64,000 bases of DNA, from NCBI GenBank assembly GCA_963797095.1, contig CAWCNY010000008.1:64001-128000 (forward strand). Reading direction: 5' to 3'. Of the stretch, positions 50,878 through 60,739 are shown in pieces; positions within the stretch are counted from its first letter, which is position 1; each line of letters begins with the position of its first letter. Source of the DNA: an uncultured Chloroflexia bacterium (GTDB lineage: Bacteria > Chloroflexota > Chloroflexia > QHBQ01 > JADMIH01). Made by a program: the position numbers and the translations under genes. The notes under the pieces are model-generated. The model was given only the letters and a program-made list of their open reading frames with translations, made no database searches and was not told where the DNA came from.

Positions 50878-51564
50878 ATGGATCTTGAGCTGAATAAGCA
50901 CCATCAACATGTGTTAGGGTTGGAACAACTGAGACGCAAACGCGGTTACAAAGAAGGCTGGCTGTACCATCTCTGCCTGGAAAAAGGTTTACTGAGAGAG
51001 CTTCAGGAATTGCAACTGGCCGGGCTGGTAGGTGACCGGGCGGACACTATCGGGGGCCATGCACTCAGGAGCGCGACCTCAATGGAGGTTGGTGGCGAAG
51101 GTGAGATCCTTTCGCCCCGCACGTTGCTCACCGTTGAGCTTGTGCCCAGCACCTGCTGGTTCTCCAACCTGCGCTCCGAACTAAGCAAAGATCAATGGGA
51201 CCAGCTAAGACGCCCCATCTTCAAGAGAGCAGGCAACCGGTGCGAAGTGTGCGGAGGAAAAGGCACCCACCACCCGGTGGAATGCCATGAAGTATGGCAG
51301 TATAACGATGAGCAGCATATACAGCGCCTGGTCGGGTTGGTGGCTCTATGTCCAGCGTGTCACGAAGCCAAACATATGGGCTTCGCCTCAAGCACGGGTA
51401 GAGGAGGGCAAGCACGCGCCCACCTGGCGCGTATGAACGGCTGGAGCATGGACGACGTGGAGCTTTACCTGGAGGCGCAGTTCGAGCAATGGTCGCGCCG
51501 TTCGCAGCATGAATGGTCGCTCGATCTTTCCTGGCTGCACCAGTTCGGCATAAACACCGAGTGA
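50878..51564 (+). CDS. HNH endonuclease-like protein
   Basis: 'ELVPSTCWFSNLR', CEVC, 'ECHEVW', 'LCPACHEAKH'. Confidence 0.85.
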   Translation: MDLELNKHHQHVLGLEQLRRKRGYKEGWLYHLCLEKGLLRELQELQLAGLVGDRADTIGGHALRSATSMEVGGEGEILSPRTLLTVELVPSTCWFSNLRSELSKDQWDQLRRPIFKRAGNRCEVCGGKGTHHPVECHEVWQYNDEQHIQRLVGLVALCPACHEAKHMGFASSTGRGGQARAHLARMNGWSMDDVELYLEAQFEQWSRRSQHEWSLDLSWLHQFGINTE

Positions 51565-51615
51565 CGAGTAACGAGTAACGAGTGACGAGTAACGAGACGC
51601 TACGATCTTATGTAT

Positions 51616-53115
51616 CTATGTAAGCGGTCGCGGGTGGGCGGTCCCTATCTCGGCAGCGAGCCTGTATTGTGCGGCTGCCTTCTGATACTCGCCCCTGGCC
51701 CTCAGTATATTCCCGTATGCAAAGGCCACTATGTGCGCTAGCTCCACCAGCCCTCTTCCTTGCACAAGTTGATGTGCCTTTTCGAACAGCGCATCGGCCT
51801 CACCCCTATGCCCGCGCTCCTCCTCGATCAGGCCACCTATATGCAATGCTTCCACCTATGCTGTTGTGATATCTATCGGTGGATGGCCTGCGGCAAGCTC
51901 CCAGTTCCGAGTCCCGATTTTGCTCCCCCTCTCCCTCCCTCATCACACATAGACCCAGCGTCGCGTGCTCGGCAGCCTTATCCAGTTCCCCCTTCTGCGG
52001 TACAGATCCGCGTAATCGTACTGCAAATTACTCAGCAACACCCGATCGTCCGTCGCTTCCAGCATACCGGCGGCCTTTGCCAGCAACTCCTCCGCCTCAT
52101 CATATCCGGTATGGCGCACAAGAAGTTCCGCCAGGTGCATACACACAGCAACTGCTCCCACTATATCATCGAGCGCCTCATAAATATGCAGCGCCCGAGC
52201 GGCATATACTTTCGCCTGGGGCCAGTCGTTGTCAGCCTTGTATGCCACAGCCAGCGCCCACAAGAGGCTGGCCTCCCTTTCCACTCCGTTCAGGTCCGCT
52301 ATCAGCGCTAGGGCTTCTTTATAAGTGGCTATGGCCTGGGGCACATCGCGCAGCGCCCAATTGTCGTTTGCCAGATTGTGCAGGATACTGAGGCGCGGGC
52401 TGCGGTCTTTCACCACGCCCTTTTCAATGGAATAGAGGCATTGCGGGTGGTGATGGAGCGCCGCAACCGGCTGTTCCATGAGATAGTATGCCACTCCAAG
52501 CATATTACGCACGATCGTGAGCGAGTCCTCGTCACCGCCAGCCGCCCCCTGGGCTTCCTCCAGGTGAACCTGAGCCAAGTGTGGTTGTGAACGTTGGAGA
52601 TATGCCAGCCCTCGCAAGAAGTGGGGCCTGTAGAGTAGGCGTGGGGGCAGTTTCTTGCTGAAGATAGCGGCGCTTTGCTCCGCACACTCAACAAGAGCCA
52701 GCGCCATAGATTTCGCCTACCCCACCACCCGTATTTGATACGCAGCATTGGCTTCGTCGCCACTGCGTATCAACATTCGAGCGTAGTTGTACTGGTAATT
52801 GAGGCCCTCCTGTAATGTCTCCAACTCCGGCTCTCGAAACGCACCACCTATCCCACTACCCTGATCCTGGTAGCAGCTACCTGTGCCTACCGCTATCCCT
52901 ACCAGGAAGTGCGATAGCGGTAATGCGAGGCGAGAGGAGATCTACTCCAGCACCTTCAGAGAAGGGCGCACAGCGCCGCGCTCGATCGCGCTCACATACC
53001 CCTCGGTGAAACGGGGGCCTGCCAATTGCTCTTGTGTCAGCCCTTGCTCCTTTCTCGCTTTGCGGATACGAGCGCCGACAACAGACCCAATATTGTGTCG
53101 AAACCCTGTGCGCAT
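51616..53115 (-). pseudogene. XRE-HTH + TPR (RRNPP-like) regulator, multiply disrupted
   Basis: 'GARIRKARKEQGLTQEQLAG...YVSAIERG.VRPS' ends in a stop. TPR pieces lie in different frames (51943-52707, 51616-51855). Confidence 0.8.
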
Positions 53116-53397
53116 GGTTTGCCTTCGCTTATCTCTTTCGATCTTGATGCCCCGCCAACCGTGCACATCCACCCGCTAAAGAGCAATTCACCCCTGTCAT
53201 ATCTAGCCAATGCACGTAAAATGCTCAACAGCGTACTGATTACATGGTAGCACAGGCATTCAAGGCAACACAAGACACACAGCTCGTCACTCGTCACTCG
53301 TCACTCGCTACTCGGTGGTTATGCCGGCTTTTGCTGCTTGAGCGTTATGTGATACAATTCATAGGAAGAGTCAAGATTACGCTAATGGGGTATCAGG

Positions 53398-54966
53398 ATG
53401 GAGCCAATCCTCCGATGTATCACCGTTTCTAAGAGATTCGGCTCATTGTCCGTTCTCAGGCAACTTAGTTTTGAAGTTGCGCCAGGCGAGATCGTAGGGC
53501 TGGCGGCAGGGCATGGCGACGGTAAGTCGGTGCTGGCAGCGATCCTGGCGGGTACCGAGGCTCCCAGCGAAGGTGAAGTGTTCATAGCAGGTCAGCGTAT
53601 GCGCTGGCCCTTCAGAGCGCGCTCGGTGGGCGTTGAAGTGATCCACCAGGAGCCGGAGTTTGTCGAGCACCTGGACATTACCGCCAACATCTTTCTCGGC
53701 CACGAATTGGGCTGGCTAAAAGGATCGCTTTTGCGACGGCCTGACGAAGCCCGAATGAACCAACTGGCAACCGATGCCCTCGCCCAACTTGACGCTCATG
53801 TAGCACCGCTACATGAACCTGTGGTCAACCTATCGAGCGAGCAACGCCAGCTTATCGAGATCGCTCGCGCGCTGGTGCACCCGGCACGGCTGGTGATCGT
53901 AGACGACCCCGCGCTCCCCCTGAGCTATACCTACCAGCAAAAACTGCTGTCGGTGGTGCGCTCGTGGCAACAGCAGGGCACAGCGGTGCTCTTTATCAGC
54001 AACAATCTCGATCACCTGTTCGCCCTGGCCGACCGCATTATCGTGTTGCGGCAGGGCACCTGTGTGGCGAACCTGCGCACCGAGGCCACCGACCGCGAGG
54101 ACGTGGTAGCAGCCCTGGTCGGCACGACAGATCGACAGCAGCTTACGCCTATCATCTGGGCTTTGAGCAGCTACTATCGCGCCCGCGAAGAGGCCGAGAA
54201 GCTGGGCAACCGCCAGACCCTGCTGAAGCAAAATCTCGCCGAGCAGATCGCGGCTCTCGACAGCGCCAACCTGGCACTCCAGGATGCCCACCGCCGCTTG
54301 CTTACCGAGCGCGAGCAGGAACGAAAGGCTCTCGCCCGCGAATTGCACGACCAGGTCATCCAGGACCTGTTGAGTATGAACTACCAGCTAGAAGAGGTCG
54401 AAGCGGAGAGCCTTCCTGGGCGCGCCGACCATTTCGCCGATGGACTGTCAGAGGTACGCGCCGGAATCAGGGGTCTGGTGGACGATTTGCGCCGCATTTG
54501 CGGCAATCTGCGCCCGCCCACCATAGACAGCCTGGGGGTTGGCGCGGCTCTACAATCGTATACTCGCGACTGGTCCGTGCGCACTGGAATCCCCTTGCGC
54601 TTTGAACTGGACGAGCGGCTTGGACGCCTTCCGGAAGCTCTTGAGCTATCGATCTTCCGGATAGTGCAGGAGGGCTTGAACAACATTCGGAACCATGCAG
54701 GGGCTACCGCAGTGCAGGTAGCGCTACGCCGTACTTCGCCCACCGCCGTGACAATCATCGTGTCGGACAACGGTCGTGGGCTTCCCGAGGATTTCGACCT
54801 GGCTATGCTGGCCGAGGGGGGTCATTATGGCGTGCTGGGGATCAGCGAGCGGGTGGCGCTGGTGGATGGGCGGTGGCAGTTCCAGAACCAGCTTGGGGGT
54901 GGCACCCTGCTTCAGGTGGAGATACCCCTCAAGCGAACAAGGGTGAAAGCTGCGAAAGAAAGATAA
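53398..54966 (+). CDS. ABC-ATPase-domain / HisKA_3 histidine kinase fusion
   Basis: N-terminal sugar-ABC NBD, coiled coil, H-box 'ARELHDQVIQ', N-box 'EGLNNIRNHA', 'DNGRG', 'GVLGISERV'. No TM segment. Confidence 0.92.
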   Translation: MEPILRCITVSKRFGSLSVLRQLSFEVAPGEIVGLAAGHGDGKSVLAAILAGTEAPSEGEVFIAGQRMRWPFRARSVGVEVIHQEPEFVEHLDITANIFLGHELGWLKGSLLRRPDEARMNQLATDALAQLDAHVAPLHEPVVNLSSEQRQLIEIARALVHPARLVIVDDPALPLSYTYQQKLLSVVRSWQQQGTAVLFISNNLDHLFALADRIIVLRQGTCVANLRTEATDREDVVAALVGTTDRQQLTPIIWALSSYYRAREEAEKLGNRQTLLKQNLAEQIAALDSANLALQDAHRRLLTEREQERKALARELHDQVIQDLLSMNYQLEEVEAESLPGRADHFADGLSEVRAGIRGLVDDLRRICGNLRPPTIDSLGVGAALQSYTRDWSVRTGIPLRFELDERLGRLPEALELSIFRIVQEGLNNIRNHAGATAVQVALRRTSPTAVTIIVSDNGRGLPEDFDLAMLAEGGHYGVLGISERVALVDGRWQFQNQLGGGTLLQVEIPLKRTRVKAAKER

Positions 54967-55024
54967 AGCATAATAGAGATAAAGCATAATAAGGAAGTCA
55001 AATATGGTTGTTAGGAGTTCAACG

Positions 55025-56074
55025 ATGAACACGGCGCGAATAGTGGTTGCCGACGACCACGCGGTAGTGCGGGCGGGGATCGCTAATGCTCTACGGGGTC
55101 TATCCAATATTAAGATCGTGGGAGATGCAAGCGATGGTGAAACGCTGTTGTCCATCCTGGACAAGACACAGCCTGACTTGCTCGTAACCGACATCACTAT
55201 GCCCAACTTCGAGCCGATTGAGGGTATCGGTAGCATCCGTGCGAGGTTCCCGAACCTCAAGATCCTCATTGTAAGCGCCTATGACGACGATATGTACATA
55301 CAGGGACTGCTGAGGGCAGGCGTGAACGGCTATCATCTAAAAGACCAACCTCTCAGCGACCTGCGATTGGCCGTGCAGCAGGTGTTGGAAGGCAAGATGT
55401 GGGTAACAAGTCGCCTCGTTGAGAAACTGGTGCAAGAGCATAGTACGCCAACACCGGCCCGGGCCCTGACCGCCCGGCAGCGTGATATGCTACAACTGCT
55501 CAAACAGGGCCTGGACAATTATGCTATCGCACGCCGCACGGGCTTGAGCGTCAAGACCGTAGAAAACCATCTGACGCGCCTCTACCGGCATTTAGATGTC
55601 CAGAGTCGCCTTGAAGCTGTCAATTACTGTATGCAGCACCCGGAGGTGCTGGGCGATGCGAAGTTGGCTGCCAACCACTTCCAGGCTCTCACTGTGCAAG
55701 CTTCCCTCCAGCCGACCATCCTGATCGTAGACGATAATACTCGCTATCGCACCCAGATGCGCCGAATGGTGGGCAAGAACTACCCCGAAGCAATGGTGTA
55801 TGAGGCGGAGAACACCGCCCTCGCGCTGCGCTTCGTGGGCGAAGTCAAGCCTCGTCTGGTATTCGCCGACGTGGTGCTTGGCGACGAGAATGGCATTGAG
55901 TGTGCATCGCAAATTAAGGCCCTTTCGCCTGCCACCAGGGTCGTCTTGATCAGCGCGTACCCCGACCGTGAATTTCACCGCGCAGGACTCGAAGCAGGGG
56001 CGGTGGCCTTCCTGGACAAGAAGGACCTCAACAACGCCACACTACGCGAGGTAATAGCTGATCTAGCAGGTTGA
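55025..56074 (+). CDS. response regulator REC-LuxR HTH-REC
   Basis: 'VADDH..TDITMP', 'LTARQ...SVKTVENHL', second REC 'IVDDN..ADVVL..FLDK'. Confidence 0.92.
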   Translation: MNTARIVVADDHAVVRAGIANALRGLSNIKIVGDASDGETLLSILDKTQPDLLVTDITMPNFEPIEGIGSIRARFPNLKILIVSAYDDDMYIQGLLRAGVNGYHLKDQPLSDLRLAVQQVLEGKMWVTSRLVEKLVQEHSTPTPARALTARQRDMLQLLKQGLDNYAIARRTGLSVKTVENHLTRLYRHLDVQSRLEAVNYCMQHPEVLGDAKLAANHFQALTVQASLQPTILIVDDNTRYRTQMRRMVGKNYPEAMVYEAENTALALRFVGEVKPRLVFADVVLGDENGIECASQIKALSPATRVVLISAYPDREFHRAGLEAGAVAFLDKKDLNNATLREVIADLAG

Positions 56075-56080
56075 TCTTAT

Positions 56081-56096
56081 TAGGGGATTTCCCCTA
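56081..56096. promoter_or_regulatory. 7-2-7 inverted repeat, NarL/LuxR-type site
   Basis: TAGGGGA-tt-TCCCCTA, with another GGGGGAAA just downstream. Confidence 0.55.
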
Positions 56097-56113
56097 TTCA
56101 TTTTGGGGGAAAC

Positions 56114-56152
56114 AAGGGTAGCCAAGTTACTTCAACTTGGCTACCCTTTATT
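56114..56152 (+). terminator. 15-bp hairpin after the response regulator
   Basis: AAGGGTAGCCAAGTT-acttc-AACTTGGCTACCCTT. Confidence 0.6.
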
Positions 56153-56421
56153 CGACGTACAGGAATTTTATCCCGTGCGGTTTGATGACCGTAGCTATCG
56201 CCCTGTTTTCATGCTCCGTTTATCGCGTAGCGAGCAAGGATCCCGCGCCAACGAGCATCGTCGCAACTCGCCGGAACGGTCAAGAAGGAGGTGAGTCGCC
56301 GGAGACACGATGTTTGAAGCCCTATCTATAGCCCTATCTATATAGGTAGGCATGAGCATGGCCTTGTGACGGCCATTTTGGCAAGAACGAATTTCGATGA
56401 AGAAAAACAGGAGGAAAGTTT

Positions 56422-58617
56422 ATGAAACGGACAACATCGTTGTTGGCGCTATTGATAATTGTATCTATGCTCCTATCGGCCTGTGGCGCAAATTCGACCC
56501 CCACCCCGCTCCCTGCTCCCACAAATACGGCCGCGCCGGTGGTAGTGCCAACAGACACCACAGCCCCCGCAGCCACAGCCACTACAGCACCTGTGGCCAC
56601 GGCCACCACCCCGGCGGCGGCAGGAGGCAAGATAGCCATCCTGCTCCCTGAGACCAAGACAGCCAGGTATGAGAGCCAGGACCTCCCCAACTTCAAGGCC
56701 GAGCTCACGGCTCTAGGTTTCGACGTAGACAACAATCTGATCTACAGCAACGCGAACCAGGACGCAGCCGCCCAGCAGCAGCAGGCTGAAGCTGCCCTCA
56801 CTAACGGCGCGAAAGTGCTGGTGCTCGACCCTGTCGACTCCGATGCCGCTGCCGTGATTGCTGATGCAGCCAAAGCTAAGGGTGTGCCGGTCATCTCTTA
56901 TGACCGCCTGATCAAGAACACGGATGCTGTGAATTACTACATCTCCTTCGACAACGAGCAGGTTGGCAAGCTCCAGGGTGAGAGCTTACTGACTGCTCTT
57001 GCCGGGGTTACGAACCCAAGCATCGTGATGATCAACGGCTCGCCTACTGATAACAACGCTACCCTCTTCAAGCAAGGTGCTCACTCGGTGCTCGATGGCA
57101 AAGTAACCATCGCCAAAGAGTACGATACCCCCGACTGGTCCCCTGACAAGGCCCAGGAGGAGATGACCCAGGCTCTCACCGCCCTTGGCAACAAAGTAGA
57201 TGGGGTGTATGCCGCCAATGACGGCACCGGTGGTGGCGCTATCGCTGCCATGAAGGCTGCTGGCATCTCCCCACTTCCTCCAGTCACAGGGCAGGATGCA
57301 GAGTTGGCAGCAATCCAGCGTATCCTGGCAGGTGAGCAGTACATGACCGTCTACAAGGCCATCAAGCCTGAGGCCGAAACTGCTGCCCAACTTGCCTTCA
57401 TCCTGCTGGGTGGCGGCACCCCTAATACATCGAGGATCAACGGCCAGGTCGACAACGGCAAGATCAATGTACCCTCCGTGCTGCTCGTGCCGGTAGCCGT
57501 GACTAAAGACAACGTCGCCAGCACCGTCATAGCTGACGGTTTCTGGACAGCCGACCAGGTCTGCACAGCCGATTACGCCCAGGCGTGCACGGACGCTGGT
57601 ATCGGTGGCGGGGGCTCAACAACAGTGCCATCAGGCAAGATAGCCATCCTGCTCCCTGAGACCAAGACAGCCAGGTATGAGAGCCAGGACCTCCCCAACT
57701 TCAAGGCCAAGCTCACGGCTCTAGGTTTCGACGTAGACAACAATCTGATCTACAGCAACGCGAACCAGGACGCAGCCGCCCAGCAGCAGCAGGCTGAAGC
57801 TGCCCTCACTAACGGCGCGAAAGTGCTGGTGCTCGACCCTGTCGACTCCGATGCCGCTGCCGTGATTGCTGATGCAGCCAAAGCTAAGGGTGTGCCGGTC
57901 ATCTCTTATGACCGCCTGATCAAGAACACGGATGCTGTGAATTACTACATCTCCTTCGACAACGAGCAGGTTGGCAAGCTCCAGGGTGAGAGCTTACTGA
58001 CTGCTCTTGCCGGGGTTACGAACCCAAGCATCGTGATGATCAACGGCTCGCCTACTGATAACAACGCTACCCTCTTCAAGCAAGGTGCTCACTCGGTGCT
58101 CGATGGCAAAGTAACCATCGCCAAAGAGTACGATACCCCCGACTGGTCCCCTGACAAGGCCCAGGAGGAGATGACCCAGGCTCTCACCGCCCTTGGCAAC
58201 AAAGTAGATGGGGTGTATGCCGCCAATGACGGCACCGGTGGTGGCGCTATCGCTGCCATGAAGGCTGCTGGCATCTCCCCACTTCCTCCAGTCACAGGGC
58301 AGGATGCAGAGTTGGCAGCAATCCAGCGTATCCTGGCAGGTGAGCAGTACATGACCGTCTACAAGGCCATCAAGCCTGAGGCCGAAACTGCTGCCCAACT
58401 TGCCTTTACCCTGCTGGGTGGCGGCACTCCCGACGCATCTATGGTCAACGGCCAGGTCGACAACGGCAAGATCAACGTCCCGTCCATTCTGCTCGTGCCG
58501 GTAGCCGTGACTAAAGACAACGTCGCCAGCACCGTCATAGCTGACGGTTTCTGGACAGCCGACCAGGTCTGCACAGCCGATTACGCCCAGGCGTGCACGG
58601 ACGCTGGCATCAAGTAA
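56422..58617 (+). CDS. XylF/ChvE-like sugar-binding lipoprotein with two tandem binding domains
   Basis: Lipobox LSAC; 'ISYDRLI', 'SFDNEQVG', 'AANDG', 'TGQDA', 'MTVYK' each occur twice, 1008 bp apart. Confidence 0.93.
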   Translation: MKRTTSLLALLIIVSMLLSACGANSTPTPLPAPTNTAAPVVVPTDTTAPAATATTAPVATATTPAAAGGKIAILLPETKTARYESQDLPNFKAELTALGFDVDNNLIYSNANQDAAAQQQQAEAALTNGAKVLVLDPVDSDAAAVIADAAKAKGVPVISYDRLIKNTDAVNYYISFDNEQVGKLQGESLLTALAGVTNPSIVMINGSPTDNNATLFKQGAHSVLDGKVTIAKEYDTPDWSPDKAQEEMTQALTALGNKVDGVYAANDGTGGGAIAAMKAAGISPLPPVTGQDAELAAIQRILAGEQYMTVYKAIKPEAETAAQLAFILLGGGTPNTSRINGQVDNGKINVPSVLLVPVAVTKDNVASTVIADGFWTADQVCTADYAQACTDAGIGGGGSTTVPSGKIAILLPETKTARYESQDLPNFKAKLTALGFDVDNNLIYSNANQDAAAQQQQAEAALTNGAKVLVLDPVDSDAAAVIADAAKAKGVPVISYDRLIKNTDAVNYYISFDNEQVGKLQGESLLTALAGVTNPSIVMINGSPTDNNATLFKQGAHSVLDGKVTIAKEYDTPDWSPDKAQEEMTQALTALGNKVDGVYAANDGTGGGAIAAMKAAGISPLPPVTGQDAELAAIQRILAGEQYMTVYKAIKPEAETAAQLAFTLLGGGTPDASMVNGQVDNGKINVPSILLVPVAVTKDNVASTVIADGFWTADQVCTADYAQACTDAGIK

Positions 58618-58697
58618 GTAGATCCTAGTATAATAGGGGACCGGGGCGGGCTAACACCCTCCCTGGTTCCCTATTGTTCCCTATAGGAGGAACGTCA

Positions 58698-59528
58698 ATG
58701 GCGACATCGGAACGCACGCCAGTGCTCGAATTACGCGGTATCAGCAAGCGTTTCGGCGCTGTGCAGGCGCTTACCGACGTAAACTTCGACGTATACGCAG
58801 CCGAGGTGGTGGGACTTGTGGGCGACAATGGCGCGGGCAAGTCTACCCTTATTAAATGCATCGCAGGTATTCATCCAATAGATTCGGGCGAGATCTACTT
58901 TGAAGGACGGCGCGTAACGATCTCAGGCCCTAAGGGCGCGCTGCAACTCGGAATATCTACTGTGTACCAGGACCTTGCTCTGTGTGACAACCTGGACGTA
59001 GTCGCCAACCTCTATCTGGGCCGCGAAGAGTCGCGCCCGATCATCCCCGGCATATTCAGCATCGTTAACGAGACAAAGATGGAGCAACGTGCTATCGACG
59101 TGCTCCGGGGTCTCTCCGTGACAATTCCGAGCGTAAGAACACTGATCGCCTCGTTGTCAGGCGGCCAGCGCCAGTCAGTAGCTGTCGCGAGGTCGGTCAT
59201 GTGGAAGCCCAAGCTGGTTATCCTGGACGAGCCGACAGCCGCGCTGGGTGTTGCCCAAACTCGTCAGGTTCTGGACCTGATCCGCCGCCTGCGCGAGCAG
59301 GGGCTGGCTGTGATCGTGATCAGCCACAATCTTGAAGATGTCTTCTCGGTCGTGGACAGGATTAGCGTATTGCGCCTGGGCCGTAACGCCGGCACATTCG
59401 ATGTCAAGGATGTGAGCTATGAGCAGGTGGTAGCCGCTATCACAGGCGCGGAGTTCGGGACTTGGGAGCAAGGCGCTCACGAGGCTGAAGACGAGGTGGT
59501 TGCCCCGGCAGGAGGTGGAGTGTCATGA
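58698..59528 (+). CDS. sugar ABC transporter ATPase (single NBD)
   Basis: GDNGAGKST, LSGGQ, ILDEPT, ISHN. Confidence 0.95.
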   Translation: MATSERTPVLELRGISKRFGAVQALTDVNFDVYAAEVVGLVGDNGAGKSTLIKCIAGIHPIDSGEIYFEGRRVTISGPKGALQLGISTVYQDLALCDNLDVVANLYLGREESRPIIPGIFSIVNETKMEQRAIDVLRGLSVTIPSVRTLIASLSGGQRQSVAVARSVMWKPKLVILDEPTAALGVAQTRQVLDLIRRLREQGLAVIVISHNLEDVFSVVDRISVLRLGRNAGTFDVKDVSYEQVVAAITGAEFGTWEQGAHEAEDEVVAPAGGGVS

Positions 59529-60739
59529 GCACTATGATCGACGATCCACGCCTGATCAAGCAGGAGGCCGGCGGCAACTTCTTCAGCAACCTGCGCAAGC
59601 GCTTCGCCTATACCGACCTGGGCCAATTGCCCGTTTTGATCGGCCTGGTGCTGATCTGGGTGATCTTCCAGTGGGCCAACGCCAACTTCCTCAGCCCCGT
59701 CAACCTGACCAACCTGCTTTTGCAAAACGTGGCAATAGGGATCACGTCGGTGGGCATCACGTTGGTGCTGCTGCTGGGCGAGATCGACCTGTCGGTAGGT
59801 GCGGTAAGCGGGCTTACGGCCTCCATCATGGCCGTCCAAAATGTTAAGAACGGCATGCCCGGCATAGTGGCTATAGGGTTGGCGCTGCTGGCAGGGGCTG
59901 TAATCGGTCTTATTCATGGCCTCTGGCTCACCAAGTTGCGCGTTCCCGCTTTCGTAGTAACCCTGGCAGGTCTACTTGGCTGGCAGGGAGCGCAATTGCA
60001 GGTGCTGGGCACCACAGGCACGGTCAACTTGCGGGACCCGACCATCACCGGGCTGACGCTCACATTCTTCCCGGCGTTCTGGTCCTGGGTGATTACAATA
60101 GCAGCTGTAGCGCTATACGCAATCGGATCGTTCTGGGAGCGGCAACAACGTGTTTCGGCGGGCCTAGTTTCTATCACCCGCAGCGCCCTTGTAGCGCGAA
60201 TCGCGGCTGTCAGCATTGGCGTGCTGGCGGCCACCGCCATATTCACAGCCGACCGTGGCCTCCCCCTTTCCGTGGTGATCTTCCTTGGGGTCATAGTGGT
60301 CATGAACACGGTGACCAAGCGCACCAAATTCGGGCGGTACATCTATGCCGTGGGCGGTAACGCCGAGGCGTCCAGGCGTGCCAGCATCAACGTGGACAAC
60401 ATCCGCATCGCCGTCTTCACACTCTGTTCGTTACTGGCGGCGTTAGGGGGGGTGATGGCAGGCTCGCGACTCCTTGCGGTGAACCAAAGCTCAGGGGGGA
60501 GCGACTTCCTGCTGAACACTATTGCGGCGGCGGTTATCGGGGGGACGAGCCTGTTCGGTGGGCGGGGCACGGTGTGGGCAGCGCTGCTGGGTGCGCTGGT
60601 GATCGGGTCGATCTCGAATGGTATGGATCTGCTGGCGCTTCCCTCGCCGGTGAAGTTTATGATCACGGGCGGGGTGCTGCTGGCAGCGGTTACTCTGGAC
60701 GCTCTGATCCGCAGGCGCAGAGTGGCCACGGGGCGATAA
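59525..60739 (+). CDS. sugar ABC transporter permease (XylH-like)
   Basis: 'GEIDLSVG', 'PAFVVTL', 'FGRYIYAVGGN.EA', 'IAAAVIGGTSLFGG'. Confidence 0.95.
   Translation: MSTMIDDPRLIKQEAGGNFFSNLRKRFAYTDLGQLPVLIGLVLIWVIFQWANANFLSPVNLTNLLLQNVAIGITSVGITLVLLLGEIDLSVGAVSGLTASIMAVQNVKNGMPGIVAIGLALLAGAVIGLIHGLWLTKLRVPAFVVTLAGLLGWQGAQLQVLGTTGTVNLRDPTITGLTLTFFPAFWSWVITIAAVALYAIGSFWERQQRVSAGLVSITRSALVARIAAVSIGVLAATAIFTADRGLPLSVVIFLGVIVVMNTVTKRTKFGRYIYAVGGNAEASRRASINVDNIRIAVFTLCSLLAALGGVMAGSRLLAVNQSSGGSDFLLNTIAAAVIGGTSLFGGRGTVWAALLGALVIGSISNGMDLLALPSPVKFMITGGVLLAAVTLDALIRRRRVATGR

Follow-up and report, generated by a model that had tools for sequence, protein, structure and literature searches.

How can a histidine kinase that lies wholly in the cytoplasm respond to a sugar outside the cell? 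The question is raised by a five-gene locus at positions 53398–60739 of a 64,000-nt stretch of DNA (hereafter, the window) from an uncultured Chloroflexia bacterium (assembly GCA_963797095.1, contig CAWCNY010000008.1, positions 64,001 to 128,000). The locus encodes, in this order, a histidine kinase, a response regulator, and the binding protein, ATPase, and permease of a CUT2-type sugar importer. The N-terminal half of the kinase resembles the nucleotide-binding domain (NBD) of an ATP-binding cassette (ABC) transporter. An initial annotation of the locus had proposed that the kinase docks on the permease or pairs with the active ATPase and converts the transport cycle directly into phosphosignaling. 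Having compared the window with related loci, we lean toward a reading in which the kinase serves as the transducer on the cytoplasmic side of a sugar receptor built like an ABC importer and, in this genome, shares the permease and the binding protein of the importer.

An ABC nucleotide-binding domain is the only input domain found in the kinase

The kinase and its parts are located as follows.

53398–54966, + strand: kinase open reading frame (ORF), 522 aa, with Pfam domains ABC_tran, HisKA_3, and HATPase_c
53398–54132, + strand: kinase residues 1–245, degenerate CUT2-type NBD and proposed sensor and docking module, assigned from Pfam, motifs, and an NBD tree
54133–54312, + strand: kinase residues 246–305, conserved helical linker starting with TPxxWAxxSY, assigned from its length, its low nonsynonymous divergence (dN), and the absence of proline
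54313–54966, + strand: kinase residues 306–522, HisKA_3 with the predicted phospho-acceptor His317, followed by HATPase_c, assigned from Pfam and invariant residues

All three domains scored above their Pfam cut-offs: ABC_tran (PF00005) at residues 20–172 (69.7 bits, cut-off 25), HisKA_3 (PF07730) at residues 308–374 (48.7 bits, cut-off 24), and HATPase_c (PF02518) at residues 416–512 (36.5 bits, cut-off 26.4). No match to PAS, GAF, SLC5, or STAC domains was found in the 522-aa protein by the same scan. The kinase contains no membrane helix (the top 19-residue Kyte-Doolittle window reaches 1.21) and neither a signal peptide nor a periplasmic domain. The initial annotation had described a protein devoid of transmembrane, PAS, and GAF segments and ending in an intact HisKA_3/HATPase pair, and both descriptions hold: His317-Asp318, N429, D457, G459, G461, and G478 of the kinase half are invariant in an alignment of 69 sequences. 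Judged from its sequence, this half is an ordinary NarL-class HisKA_3 histidine kinase.

The N-terminal half was compared with the ATPase of the importer encoded downstream.

58674–59528, + strand: canonical single-NBD CUT2 ATPase, 284 aa (ABC_tran, 105.9 bits)

Residues 1–245 of the kinase are 33% identical to this ATPase (E = 2e-46), which is the top NBD match to the kinase in the whole genome once the kinase itself is excluded; the resemblance noted earlier is thereby confirmed, and so is the statement that the ATPase has one NBD (a single ABC_tran domain in 284 aa). The ATPase motifs are canonical (GDNGAGKS, LSGGQ, LDEP, and SHN). The kinase has AGHGDGKS at Walker A, IHQE at the Q-loop, LSSEQ at the signature, VIVDDP at Walker B, and ISNN at the H-switch, where the ATPase has ISHN. 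While these changed letters had been read correctly, the conclusion that every catalytic motif is altered stands only in part. The catalytic set of LSGGQ, Walker B Glu, and H-switch His is indeed replaced (by LSSEQ, DD, and Asn), but Walker A still fits the classical consensus [AG]x4GK[ST], and Walker A K43, Q-loop Gln84, and Walker B Asp169 are intact. By fold, as judged from the profile match, the N terminus of the kinase is an ABC NBD, and from its motifs we do not class it as an active transport ATPase.

The two halves of the protein had been said to be joined by a coiled coil. Although residues 255–316 contain no proline and one glycine and are highly conserved, a crude heptad score was not clear-cut, and this part of the description was not borne out.

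The family retains ATP-binding residues and has lost hydrolytic ones

To describe the NBD at the level of the family, 81 kinase NBDs, 21 single-NBD ATPases, and 28 tandem ATPases were extracted from related loci and aligned. The Walker A Lys is present in 78 and the Q-loop Gln in 79 of the 81 kinase NBDs, and Walker B Asp169 is invariant in the 69-sequence kinase alignment. Position 4 of the signature is Glu in every kinase NBD (81/81), and the H-switch His is found in a single one (1/81). After the Walker B Asp, 40 of them have Glu, 39 have Asp, and 2 have Asn, so that the Glu-to-Asp change highlighted initially is not a feature of the family. The single-NBD ATPases are canonical (Walker B DE and Q-loop Gln in 21/21 and LSGGQ in 18/21). 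The tandem ATPases are asymmetric, with a degenerate signature in the N-terminal half and a degenerate Walker A and no H-switch His in the C-terminal half; the same asymmetry is seen in tandem CUT2 ATPases generally. As far as residues can tell, the family keeps ATP-binding residues, lacks hydrolytic ones, and may or may not have the catalytic Glu. In other ABC proteins, mutation of the H-switch leaves ATP binding in place and nearly abolishes hydrolysis.

The degeneracy of the kinase NBD is comparable to that of tandem CUT2 ATPases, in which one of the two NBDs is naturally degenerate too, and the best NCBIfam matches of kinase residues 2–243 are tandem ATPases of this type (RbsA, XylG, AraG, and MglA). 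These matches fall far below the family cut-offs (150.9 versus 689 for AraG and 144.6 versus 699 for XylG). Unlike the tandem ATPases, which have two NBDs in ~500 aa, the kinase has one NBD, and its degeneracy takes another form: Walker A is kept, the signature carries Glu, and the H-switch His is missing.

The kinase belongs to a conserved single-copy family of Chloroflexota

A search that spanned 5.8 billion proteins returned relatives whose best 120 matches all combine PF00005, PF07730, and PF02518 in 505–555 aa at 59–100% identity. NCBI names them generically as “ATP-binding cassette domain-containing protein.” Upon clustering at 50%, the full-length family is reduced to the representatives P0121, P0122, P0125, and P0126 and the more distant P0157. 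The best 80 loci from species genomes all come from what we take, from the lineage names, to be Chloroflexota (Roseiflexaceae, Anaerolineae, Caldilineaceae, Ardenticatenaceae, Thermoflexia, and Limnocylindrales). When an even sample of the phylum was screened, the kinase was found in 26 of 401 genomes (26 of the 323 with at least 90% completeness) and in 10 of 218 genera. All 26 carriers, several of them assembled into 1–4 contigs, have one kinase gene per genome.

The possibility that the protein is an artifact joining two genes, raised at the outset as a test, is contradicted by the presence of a single fused ORF in 161 of 161 loci. The kinase is a conserved, single-copy Chloroflexota family. 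In a tree of 155 NBD rows, the kinase NBDs form one clade (Shimodaira-Hasegawa–like approximate likelihood ratio test support of 100), which groups with the single-NBD CUT2 ATPases (support 98) and with neither half of the tandem ATPases. Since the kinase NBDs form one clade beside the single-NBD ATPases, a single origin of the fusion in this group is most likely, its NBD having come from an ATPase like the one encoded in the window operon. An origin from the N-terminal half of a tandem ATPase, which the NCBIfam matches would have suggested, was considered and rejected, as the tree separates the kinases and single-NBD ATPases from the tandem N-terminal halves with a support of 98.

The spacing between the two halves of the protein is strongly conserved. 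Trp254 and His317 (window numbering) are separated by 78 residues in 156 of the 161 loci, by 77 in 3, and by 64 in the window and its closest relative, L091, only.

Related NBDs were also seen in other combinations. P0260 has a similar NBD ahead of TPR_MalT and GerE domains and P0209 ahead of GAF, HisKA, and HATPase_c domains; in both, the NBD is followed by a linker start of the TPxxWAxxSY type. In P0138 and P0172, a related NBD precedes PAS domains and HisKA_3. P0157 retains the H-switch His and looks like a separate fusion. Clusters of Bacillota proteins combining ABC_tran, HisKA_2, and HATPase_c appeared in the protein Atlas with scores of 0.85–0.86 and are mentioned as leads only.

Dedicated permease genes precede the kinase gene in many relatives

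Gene context was analyzed in the window and 160 related loci, out of more than 500 loci reported by the searches. ORFs were predicted by our own caller and labeled by BLASTP against the five window proteins and two Pfam-confirmed reference sensor proteins; with this procedure, errors are possible in start codons and in a few class assignments. Because the related loci are kin, the counts below overstate independence; the kinase tree implies at least five changes of context.

Permease directly upstream of the kinase: 32 loci
Permease, then binding protein, then kinase: 25 loci
Permease–binding protein fusion, then kinase: 6 loci
Binding protein upstream, with the contig ending there: 10 loci
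Binding protein, single-NBD ATPase, permease, and kinase in this order: 11 loci
Binding protein, tandem ATPase, permease, and kinase in this order: 4 loci
Transporter with a single-NBD ATPase elsewhere in the locus (including the window and L091): 16 loci
Transporter with a tandem ATPase elsewhere in the locus: 15 loci
CUT2 parts only: 12 loci
Nothing in view: 30 loci

As can be seen from this list, a dedicated CUT2 permease gene lies directly 5′ of the kinase gene in 63 of the 161 loci, and a full CUT2 transporter adjoins the kinase in 46. In all 30 loci with nothing in view, at least one flank is shorter than 3 kb, and no CUT2-free locus was found among those with at least 3 kb on both flanks. 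A lack of linkage to sugar ABC permeases, which had been named as grounds for abandoning the proposal, is thus not what we see: CUT2 genes are present wherever the flanks allow. The gaps between the dedicated genes and the kinase gene are mostly −26 to +76 nt, although one locus of the permease-kinase type has a gap of 1191 nt; in L021, the stop codon of the permease gene overlaps the start of the kinase gene. An orthologue of the window response regulator (at least 45% identity by the script rule) is found in 113 of the 161 loci.

The dedicated permeases are RbsC-like, and the dedicated binding proteins are RhaS/RbsB-like. The unfused binding protein of L093 starts with a hydrophobic, lipoprotein-like leader. 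In a 705-aa permease–binding protein fusion, an extra hydrophobic helix (residues 360–392) lies between the two parts and would place the binding domain on the outer side of the cell. The cytoplasmic coupling loop of the dedicated permeases is conserved but SERAL-like, where transport permeases have GGNxEAA; a distinct loop that is nevertheless kept is as expected if the sensor permease docks a different NBD.

Twenty-three dedicated-permease loci have at least 5 kb of sequence on both sides, and 7 of these contain no other ABC ATPase-like ORF. The only NBD on hand for the permease at these seven loci is the one fused to the kinase. Because of the gene context across the 161 loci, docking on a CUT2 permease is the most likely role of the kinase NBD, and at the level of the family we regard such docking as highly probable. 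This half of the initial proposal, that the kinase docks on the permease, remains the best reading, with the dedicated permease genes of the 63 loci as its basis. The part about the transport cycle is not supported: the commonest design comprises a dedicated permease, with or without a binding protein, and no transport ATPase, which is the makeup of a receptor and not of a pump.

We also considered whether the sensor permease might be the second permease subunit of a neighboring transporter. This idea was rejected for at least the seven well-flanked loci without another ATPase and for loci such as L021, whose divergent transporter comes with a separate, 56%-identical permease.

Two further arrangements were seen. 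In L045, L048, L049, L050, L064, and L070, an extra pair of XylH-like permease and binding protein, without an ATPase gene of its own, adjoins the regulator and the kinase beside a complete transporter and is maybe another form of dedicated receptor. In L075, L085, L133, L136, L138, L139, and L146, a dedicated permease and binding protein precede the kinase, which is followed by a divergent single-NBD ATPase (37–38% identity to that of the window) and another permease.

Pairing with the transport ATPase and free nucleotide sensing are both unlikely

The alternative offered by the initial annotation is that the kinase NBD and the single-NBD ATPase of the importer form a heterodimer on the permease, through which the kinase reads each ATP-driven cycle. 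The ATPase being the closest NBD in the genome, the position of the kinase NBDs nearest to its clade, and 27 of the 161 loci that have a single-NBD transporter and no dedicated permease (11 of them with binding protein, ATPase, permease, and kinase in one operon) are as this alternative would have it. It does not account for the 63 dedicated-permease loci, which lack an adjoining single-NBD ATPase of that clade, or for the 7 well-flanked loci with no other ATPase at all, and most family members have no single-NBD ATPase nearby. Both composite sites of such a heterodimer would be defective (LSSEQ in one and no H-switch His in the other), whereas the tandem ATPases of these loci keep one fully canonical site. 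In addition, histidine kinases form symmetric homodimers, a symmetry that an NBD homodimer would match. We consider the heterodimer unlikely.

The distribution of the ATPase bears on the same point. That the importer uses a single-NBD ATPase might be taken as a sign of a missing half. The ATPase clade, however, matches 118 of the 401 phylum genomes (a count that includes G000 and G173, the latter flagged as unpublished), and 109 of the 118 have no kinase; only 9 are among the 26 kinase carriers, the other 17 showing no match to this ATPase clade. Tandem-ATPase transporters are the neighbors of the closest relatives that have dedicated sensor pairs. With the ATPase clade common in the absence of the kinase and these relatives next to tandem ATPases, the kinase NBD as the second NBD missing from the importer was rejected.

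A second alternative does without a membrane partner: the NBD would be a free cytoplasmic sensor of nucleotides (energy state) or of a metabolite, and the linkage to importer genes would reflect the regulated target. The conservation of ATP-binding but not catalytic residues and the lack of a dedicated permease in the window agree with this possibility, and ATP-driven NBD dimerization alone could drive the linker. Left unexplained are the overlapping or nearly abutting dedicated permease genes that lie 5′ of the kinase without an ATPase, the permease–binding protein fusions, and the sensor-specific variant of the coupling loop. The Q-loop Gln, which couples the NBD to the permease in ABC systems, is also kept in 79 of 81 kinase NBDs. 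A free sensor therefore appears improbable.

The window kinase belongs to a lineage without dedicated receptor genes

The window represents a special case, since its permease is the importer’s own and no dedicated sensor copy is present.

59525–60739, + strand: CUT2 permease, 404 aa, BPD_transp_2 (Pfam, 99.5 bits), GguB/XylH-like (GguB, 251 bits), proposed docking partner of the kinase

The permease gene lies 4.6 kb downstream of the kinase gene, and its coupling loop has the canonical form GGNxEA[AS]RRA. The closest relative, L091 (kinase 73% identical), has the same gene order of kinase, regulator, binding protein, ATPase, and permease, with identities to the window of 81% for the binding protein (one domain), 83% for the ATPase, and 76% for the permease. 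No dedicated permease–binding protein pair is present within 8.6 kb upstream of the kinase in L091. In L093 (kinase 65% identical), a regulator, a window-type binding protein (84%), a single-NBD ATPase (71%), and a permease (61%) are followed by a dedicated permease, a dedicated binding protein, and the kinase.

The window genome (93% complete) was searched with a sensor-type (RbsC-type) permease query, and no sensor-type permease was found. The matches were two permeases encoded on contig C3 beside a tandem ATPase, the window permease, and one weak hit; no other XylH/GguB-like permease was detected with this query.

The window kinase appears to be maintained. Relative to L091, dN is much the same for the NBD (0.173), the ATPase (0.167), and the permease (0.188), with synonymous divergence saturated, while the linker has the lowest value of the protein (0.085; 89.5% identity). 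In the window and L091, the linker is 14 residues, exactly two heptads, shorter than in almost all relatives. These values point to purifying selection on an NBD that is not decaying. Because the NBD is constrained and the linker was shortened in register, the comparison argues for a lineage that still signals without dedicated receptor parts, most simply via the XylH/GguB-like permease that travels with the kinase.

According to a third alternative, the window kinase was orphaned by the loss of the dedicated pair and is now constitutive or non-signaling, with the regulator controlled otherwise, for example, through its second receiver. Sister lineages all have a dedicated pair, the window and L091 share extra Walker A changes and the 14-residue linker deletion, and a search of 12 same-genus genomes did not find the cluster, which is therefore maybe a recent acquisition. 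An orphan would not be expected to retain the same arrangement in L091 at 73% identity, an NBD as constrained as the transporter genes, a linker that is the most conserved part of the protein and was shortened by exactly two heptads, and a full set of intact kinase catalytic residues, and we judge this alternative quite unlikely. Docking on the RbsC-like permease pair of contig C3 is very improbable: these two permeases are the best sensor-permease matches in the genome (35–36% identity, E = 4e-49 and 2e-44), but they belong to a complete transporter with its own tandem ATPase and lie a long way from the kinase, whose companion in L091 is the XylF-like importer.

Evidence for docking on the window permease is mixed

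A complex of the window permease (alignment of 73 sequences) and kinase residues 1–255 (alignment of 69), with both alignments built by us, was predicted with a score of 0.44, the best of three controls being 0.00, which gives docking weak support. Runs agreed in at least 77% of contacts, and the predicted local distance difference test value of the partners was at least 77. In calibration, the pass mark let through 58 of 80 solved complexes and 2 of 110 mismatched pairs; among the passes that scored 0.60 or less were only 7 of the 80 solved complexes and both mismatches.

The co-variation between NBD columns and gene context was also scanned, and only NBD position 117 stood out. This position is Arg in 52 of the 63 dedicated-permease loci, while in the 26 loci with XylH-like permeases it is Arg in 2, Gln in 12, and Glu in 6; in the lineage of the window and L091, Arg was changed to Glu. 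The XylH-like coupling loops carry an Arg-Arg pair that is absent from sensor loops, and a charge match between position 117 and the permease loop is conceivable.

Several observations weigh against sharing of the importer permease by the window kinase. The complex model indicates compatibility at most, as any NBD may dock on a permease in this way. Position 117 was a post hoc pick, and its association with context is not significant (5 independent pairs, median p of 0.25); with five independent context changes, a sign test cannot reach significance. No adaptation of the coupling loop was seen on the permease side when the window and L091 were compared with orthologues from eight kinase-less genomes: the loop of L091 is identical to theirs, and that of the window differs by one Ala-to-Ser change. 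The window kinase is nested (support 99) among members that all have dedicated sensor permeases with divergent loops. The NBD changes specific to the window and L091 are mainly in Walker A (G37A, R38G, and S39H) and after Walker B (T172A), and the Q-loop region is unchanged in this lineage. Finally, no triple fusion of permease, NBD, and kinase was found among 16 long matches, although a blank of this kind is weak evidence.

The regulator, the importer operon, and the origin of the locus

The remaining features of the locus are as follows.

55004–56074, + strand: response regulator, 356 aa, receiver (REC) domain, LuxR/GerE helix-turn-helix (HTH), and second REC domain (Pfam Response_reg and GerE)
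56088–56148, + strand: pair of strong hairpins 3′ of the regulator gene, with TTTATT after the second, a likely terminator (RNA folding)
56321–56341, + strand: direct repeat of CCTATCTAT with 12-nt spacing, ~85 nt 5′ of the binding-protein gene, candidate operator (motif count)
56422–58617, + strand: predicted secreted sugar-binding protein, 731 aa, XylF/ChvE-like, with two Peripla_BP_4 domains (Pfam and NCBIfam)

Both receivers of the regulator keep the acidic pocket, the acceptor Asp, and the Lys in 103 orthologues. The second receiver could serve as a phosphate sink or take a second input. The hairpins have a folding energy of −37.3 kcal/mol (z = −6.84), with none of 200 shuffled sequences being as good, and a terminator-like site was also called at 56081–56096. 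Because these strong hairpins follow the regulator gene, the locus probably has two transcription units, one with the kinase and regulator genes and one with the three transporter genes.

The CCTATCTAT motif has two matches in the 64-kb window, both at the promoter region of the binding-protein gene, compared to 0.26 expected by chance. A single copy is present in L093 (3359–3367), 42–50 nt 5′ of the orthologous gene, and no copy was found in L091. As an operator for the regulator, the repeat is a weak lead.

The binding-protein gene contains an in-frame internal tandem duplication with a period of 1008 nt. The duplicated 300-nt stretches at 56625–56924 and 57633–57932 are 100% identical, and the two resulting Peripla_BP_4 domains are nearly identical. 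The corresponding protein of L091, the closest relative, has 420 aa and one domain, which makes the duplication a recent event or perhaps a product of the assembly. Binding proteins with two or three domains (562–981 aa) are found repeatedly in related loci.

Neither 12 genomes of the same genus, of which 5 are at least 90% complete, nor 8 of the same order yielded the kinase. Short paralogous stretches aside, the block from kinase to permease had no DNA match in the five same-genus genomes of at least 90% completeness, and its nearest relatives are in other families. Positions 53398–60739 are thus probably a horizontally acquired five-gene module, as judged from this distribution. DNA synteny with the five genomes was tried as a means to place the borders of an island and was given up, the genomes being too diverged (65–75%). 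Heptanucleotide arrays of the GAGTGAC/GAGTAAC type, inverted relative to each other, occur at 51559–51597 and 53282–53315 and flank a tetratricopeptide repeat gene (51943–52707). The second array lies ~85 nt 5′ of the kinase start, and near-identical arrays are present at many sites in same-genus genomes.

A possible route for the signal

According to the mechanism that we propose, the two NBDs of a kinase dimer would take the position of the transport ATPase and dock on the cytoplasmic coupling loops of a dimeric CUT2 permease. Each NBD would bind ATP and be built not to hydrolyze it efficiently. On the outer side, the sugar-loaded binding protein would dock on the permease and shift the open/closed balance of the NBD pair, favoring the ATP-bound closed pair. 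With hydrolysis disabled, the pair would report occupancy reversibly and drive no cycle. The movement would travel via the rigid, fixed-length helical linker to HisKA_3, changing autophosphorylation and phosphotransfer to the REC-HTH-REC regulator, which would then control the promoter of the adjacent sugar-importer operon. In most relatives, the receptor would be a dedicated sensor permease, often with a binding protein too, encoded directly 5′ of the kinase. In the window and its closest relative, where the dedicated copies are missing, kinase dimers would alternate with ATPase dimers on the permease of the importer. Docking, ATP binding without hydrolysis, the direction of signaling, and permease sharing in the window genome are all inferred from sequence comparison.

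More broadly, and with a little less confidence than an even chance would warrant, the family may represent an ABC importer scaffold turned into a transmembrane receptor: an ATP-primed reversible switch formed by the binding protein, the permease, and a non-hydrolyzing NBD pair, with the fused kinase as its output and with signal transfer through the coupling helix and no transmembrane helix in the kinase. The loci would then form a graded series, from kinases with their own permease and binding protein, through those with their own permease and a borrowed binding protein, to the window, where both are borrowed. In this last state, one permease population would act as pump or receptor depending on the NBD dimer docked. 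The sensor NBD with its linker would be a portable input module, as it also precedes a MalT-like TPR and LuxR output and a GAF-HisKA kinase.

Comparison with known transporter-coupled kinases

Several known systems connect a transporter to a regulator. UhpC, a nontransporting paralogue in the major facilitator superfamily, is the receptor for the NarL-class membrane kinase UhpB. MalK, a catalytic ABC NBD, contacts the LuxR-type regulator MalT via a separate regulatory domain. The Pst-Pho system has a catalytic transporter ATPase, and its signal reaches a membrane kinase by way of PhoU, a distinct adaptor protein. The kinase half studied here has UhpB as one of its NCBIfam matches, but, unlike in UhpC-UhpB, with its membrane kinase, and MalK-MalT, with its catalytic NBD, a degenerate NBD is fused to a soluble kinase.

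Published accounts describe further cases. In the SLC5/STAC kinases CbrA, CrbS, and RpuS (“transceptors”), a transporter module is the input of a kinase that controls uptake and metabolism genes (PMC13022988, PMC5715377, PMC9100948, and PMC7096432). The family described here likewise uses a transporter module as histidine kinase input, but only the soluble ABC ATPase is fused, with the membrane and binding-protein subunits encoded by separate genes, whereas in the SLC5/STAC kinases a whole membrane symporter is fused. In PstSCAB-PhoU-PhoR, a histidine kinase is reported to receive information on the conformational state of the ABC importer (PMC5775613); here, the degenerate NBD is part of the kinase itself. 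In BceAB-BceS, an ABC transporter is reported to be needed for sensing by the kinase (PMC9169098 and PMC3023708). BceS is an intramembrane-sensing kinase that contacts the permease of an exporter-type transporter in the membrane, the two being separate proteins, while the window kinase has no membrane segment. In XylFII-LytS-YesN, a Peripla_BP_4-class protein is described as signaling sugar to a kinase, which in turn induces a xylose ABC importer (PMC8050422), and a sugar-binding protein of the same class is present in the window circuit. In XylFII-LytS, as in LuxPQ, TorTS, and ChvE-VirA, the binding protein touches a periplasmic domain of the kinase. The window kinase, in contrast, has no extracytoplasmic part, so a permease must carry the signal across the membrane.

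None of the known systems compared has an ABC NBD as part of the kinase, although transporter-coupled kinase sensing as such is known. No description of an ABC-NBD–fused histidine kinase was found in the open-access literature searched, and among solved structures the best 60 of 156 matches cover the NBD part only.

The binding protein, permease, NBD-kinase, and regulator make up a modular set that would be attractive for mechanistic work and for sugar biosensors, with Lys43, Gln84, signature Glu148, linker length, and the permease coupling loop as mutational handles. If our reading is true, the family would provide a natural ABC NBD selected for binding and switching without catalysis, which bears on how degenerate ATP sites function across ABC proteins. 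In the usual view, sensor kinases receive outside signals via their own membrane or periplasmic parts or by contacting a transporter within the membrane; a soluble kinase that plugs an ABC ATPase domain into a permease would represent a third route by which signals from outside reach the cell.

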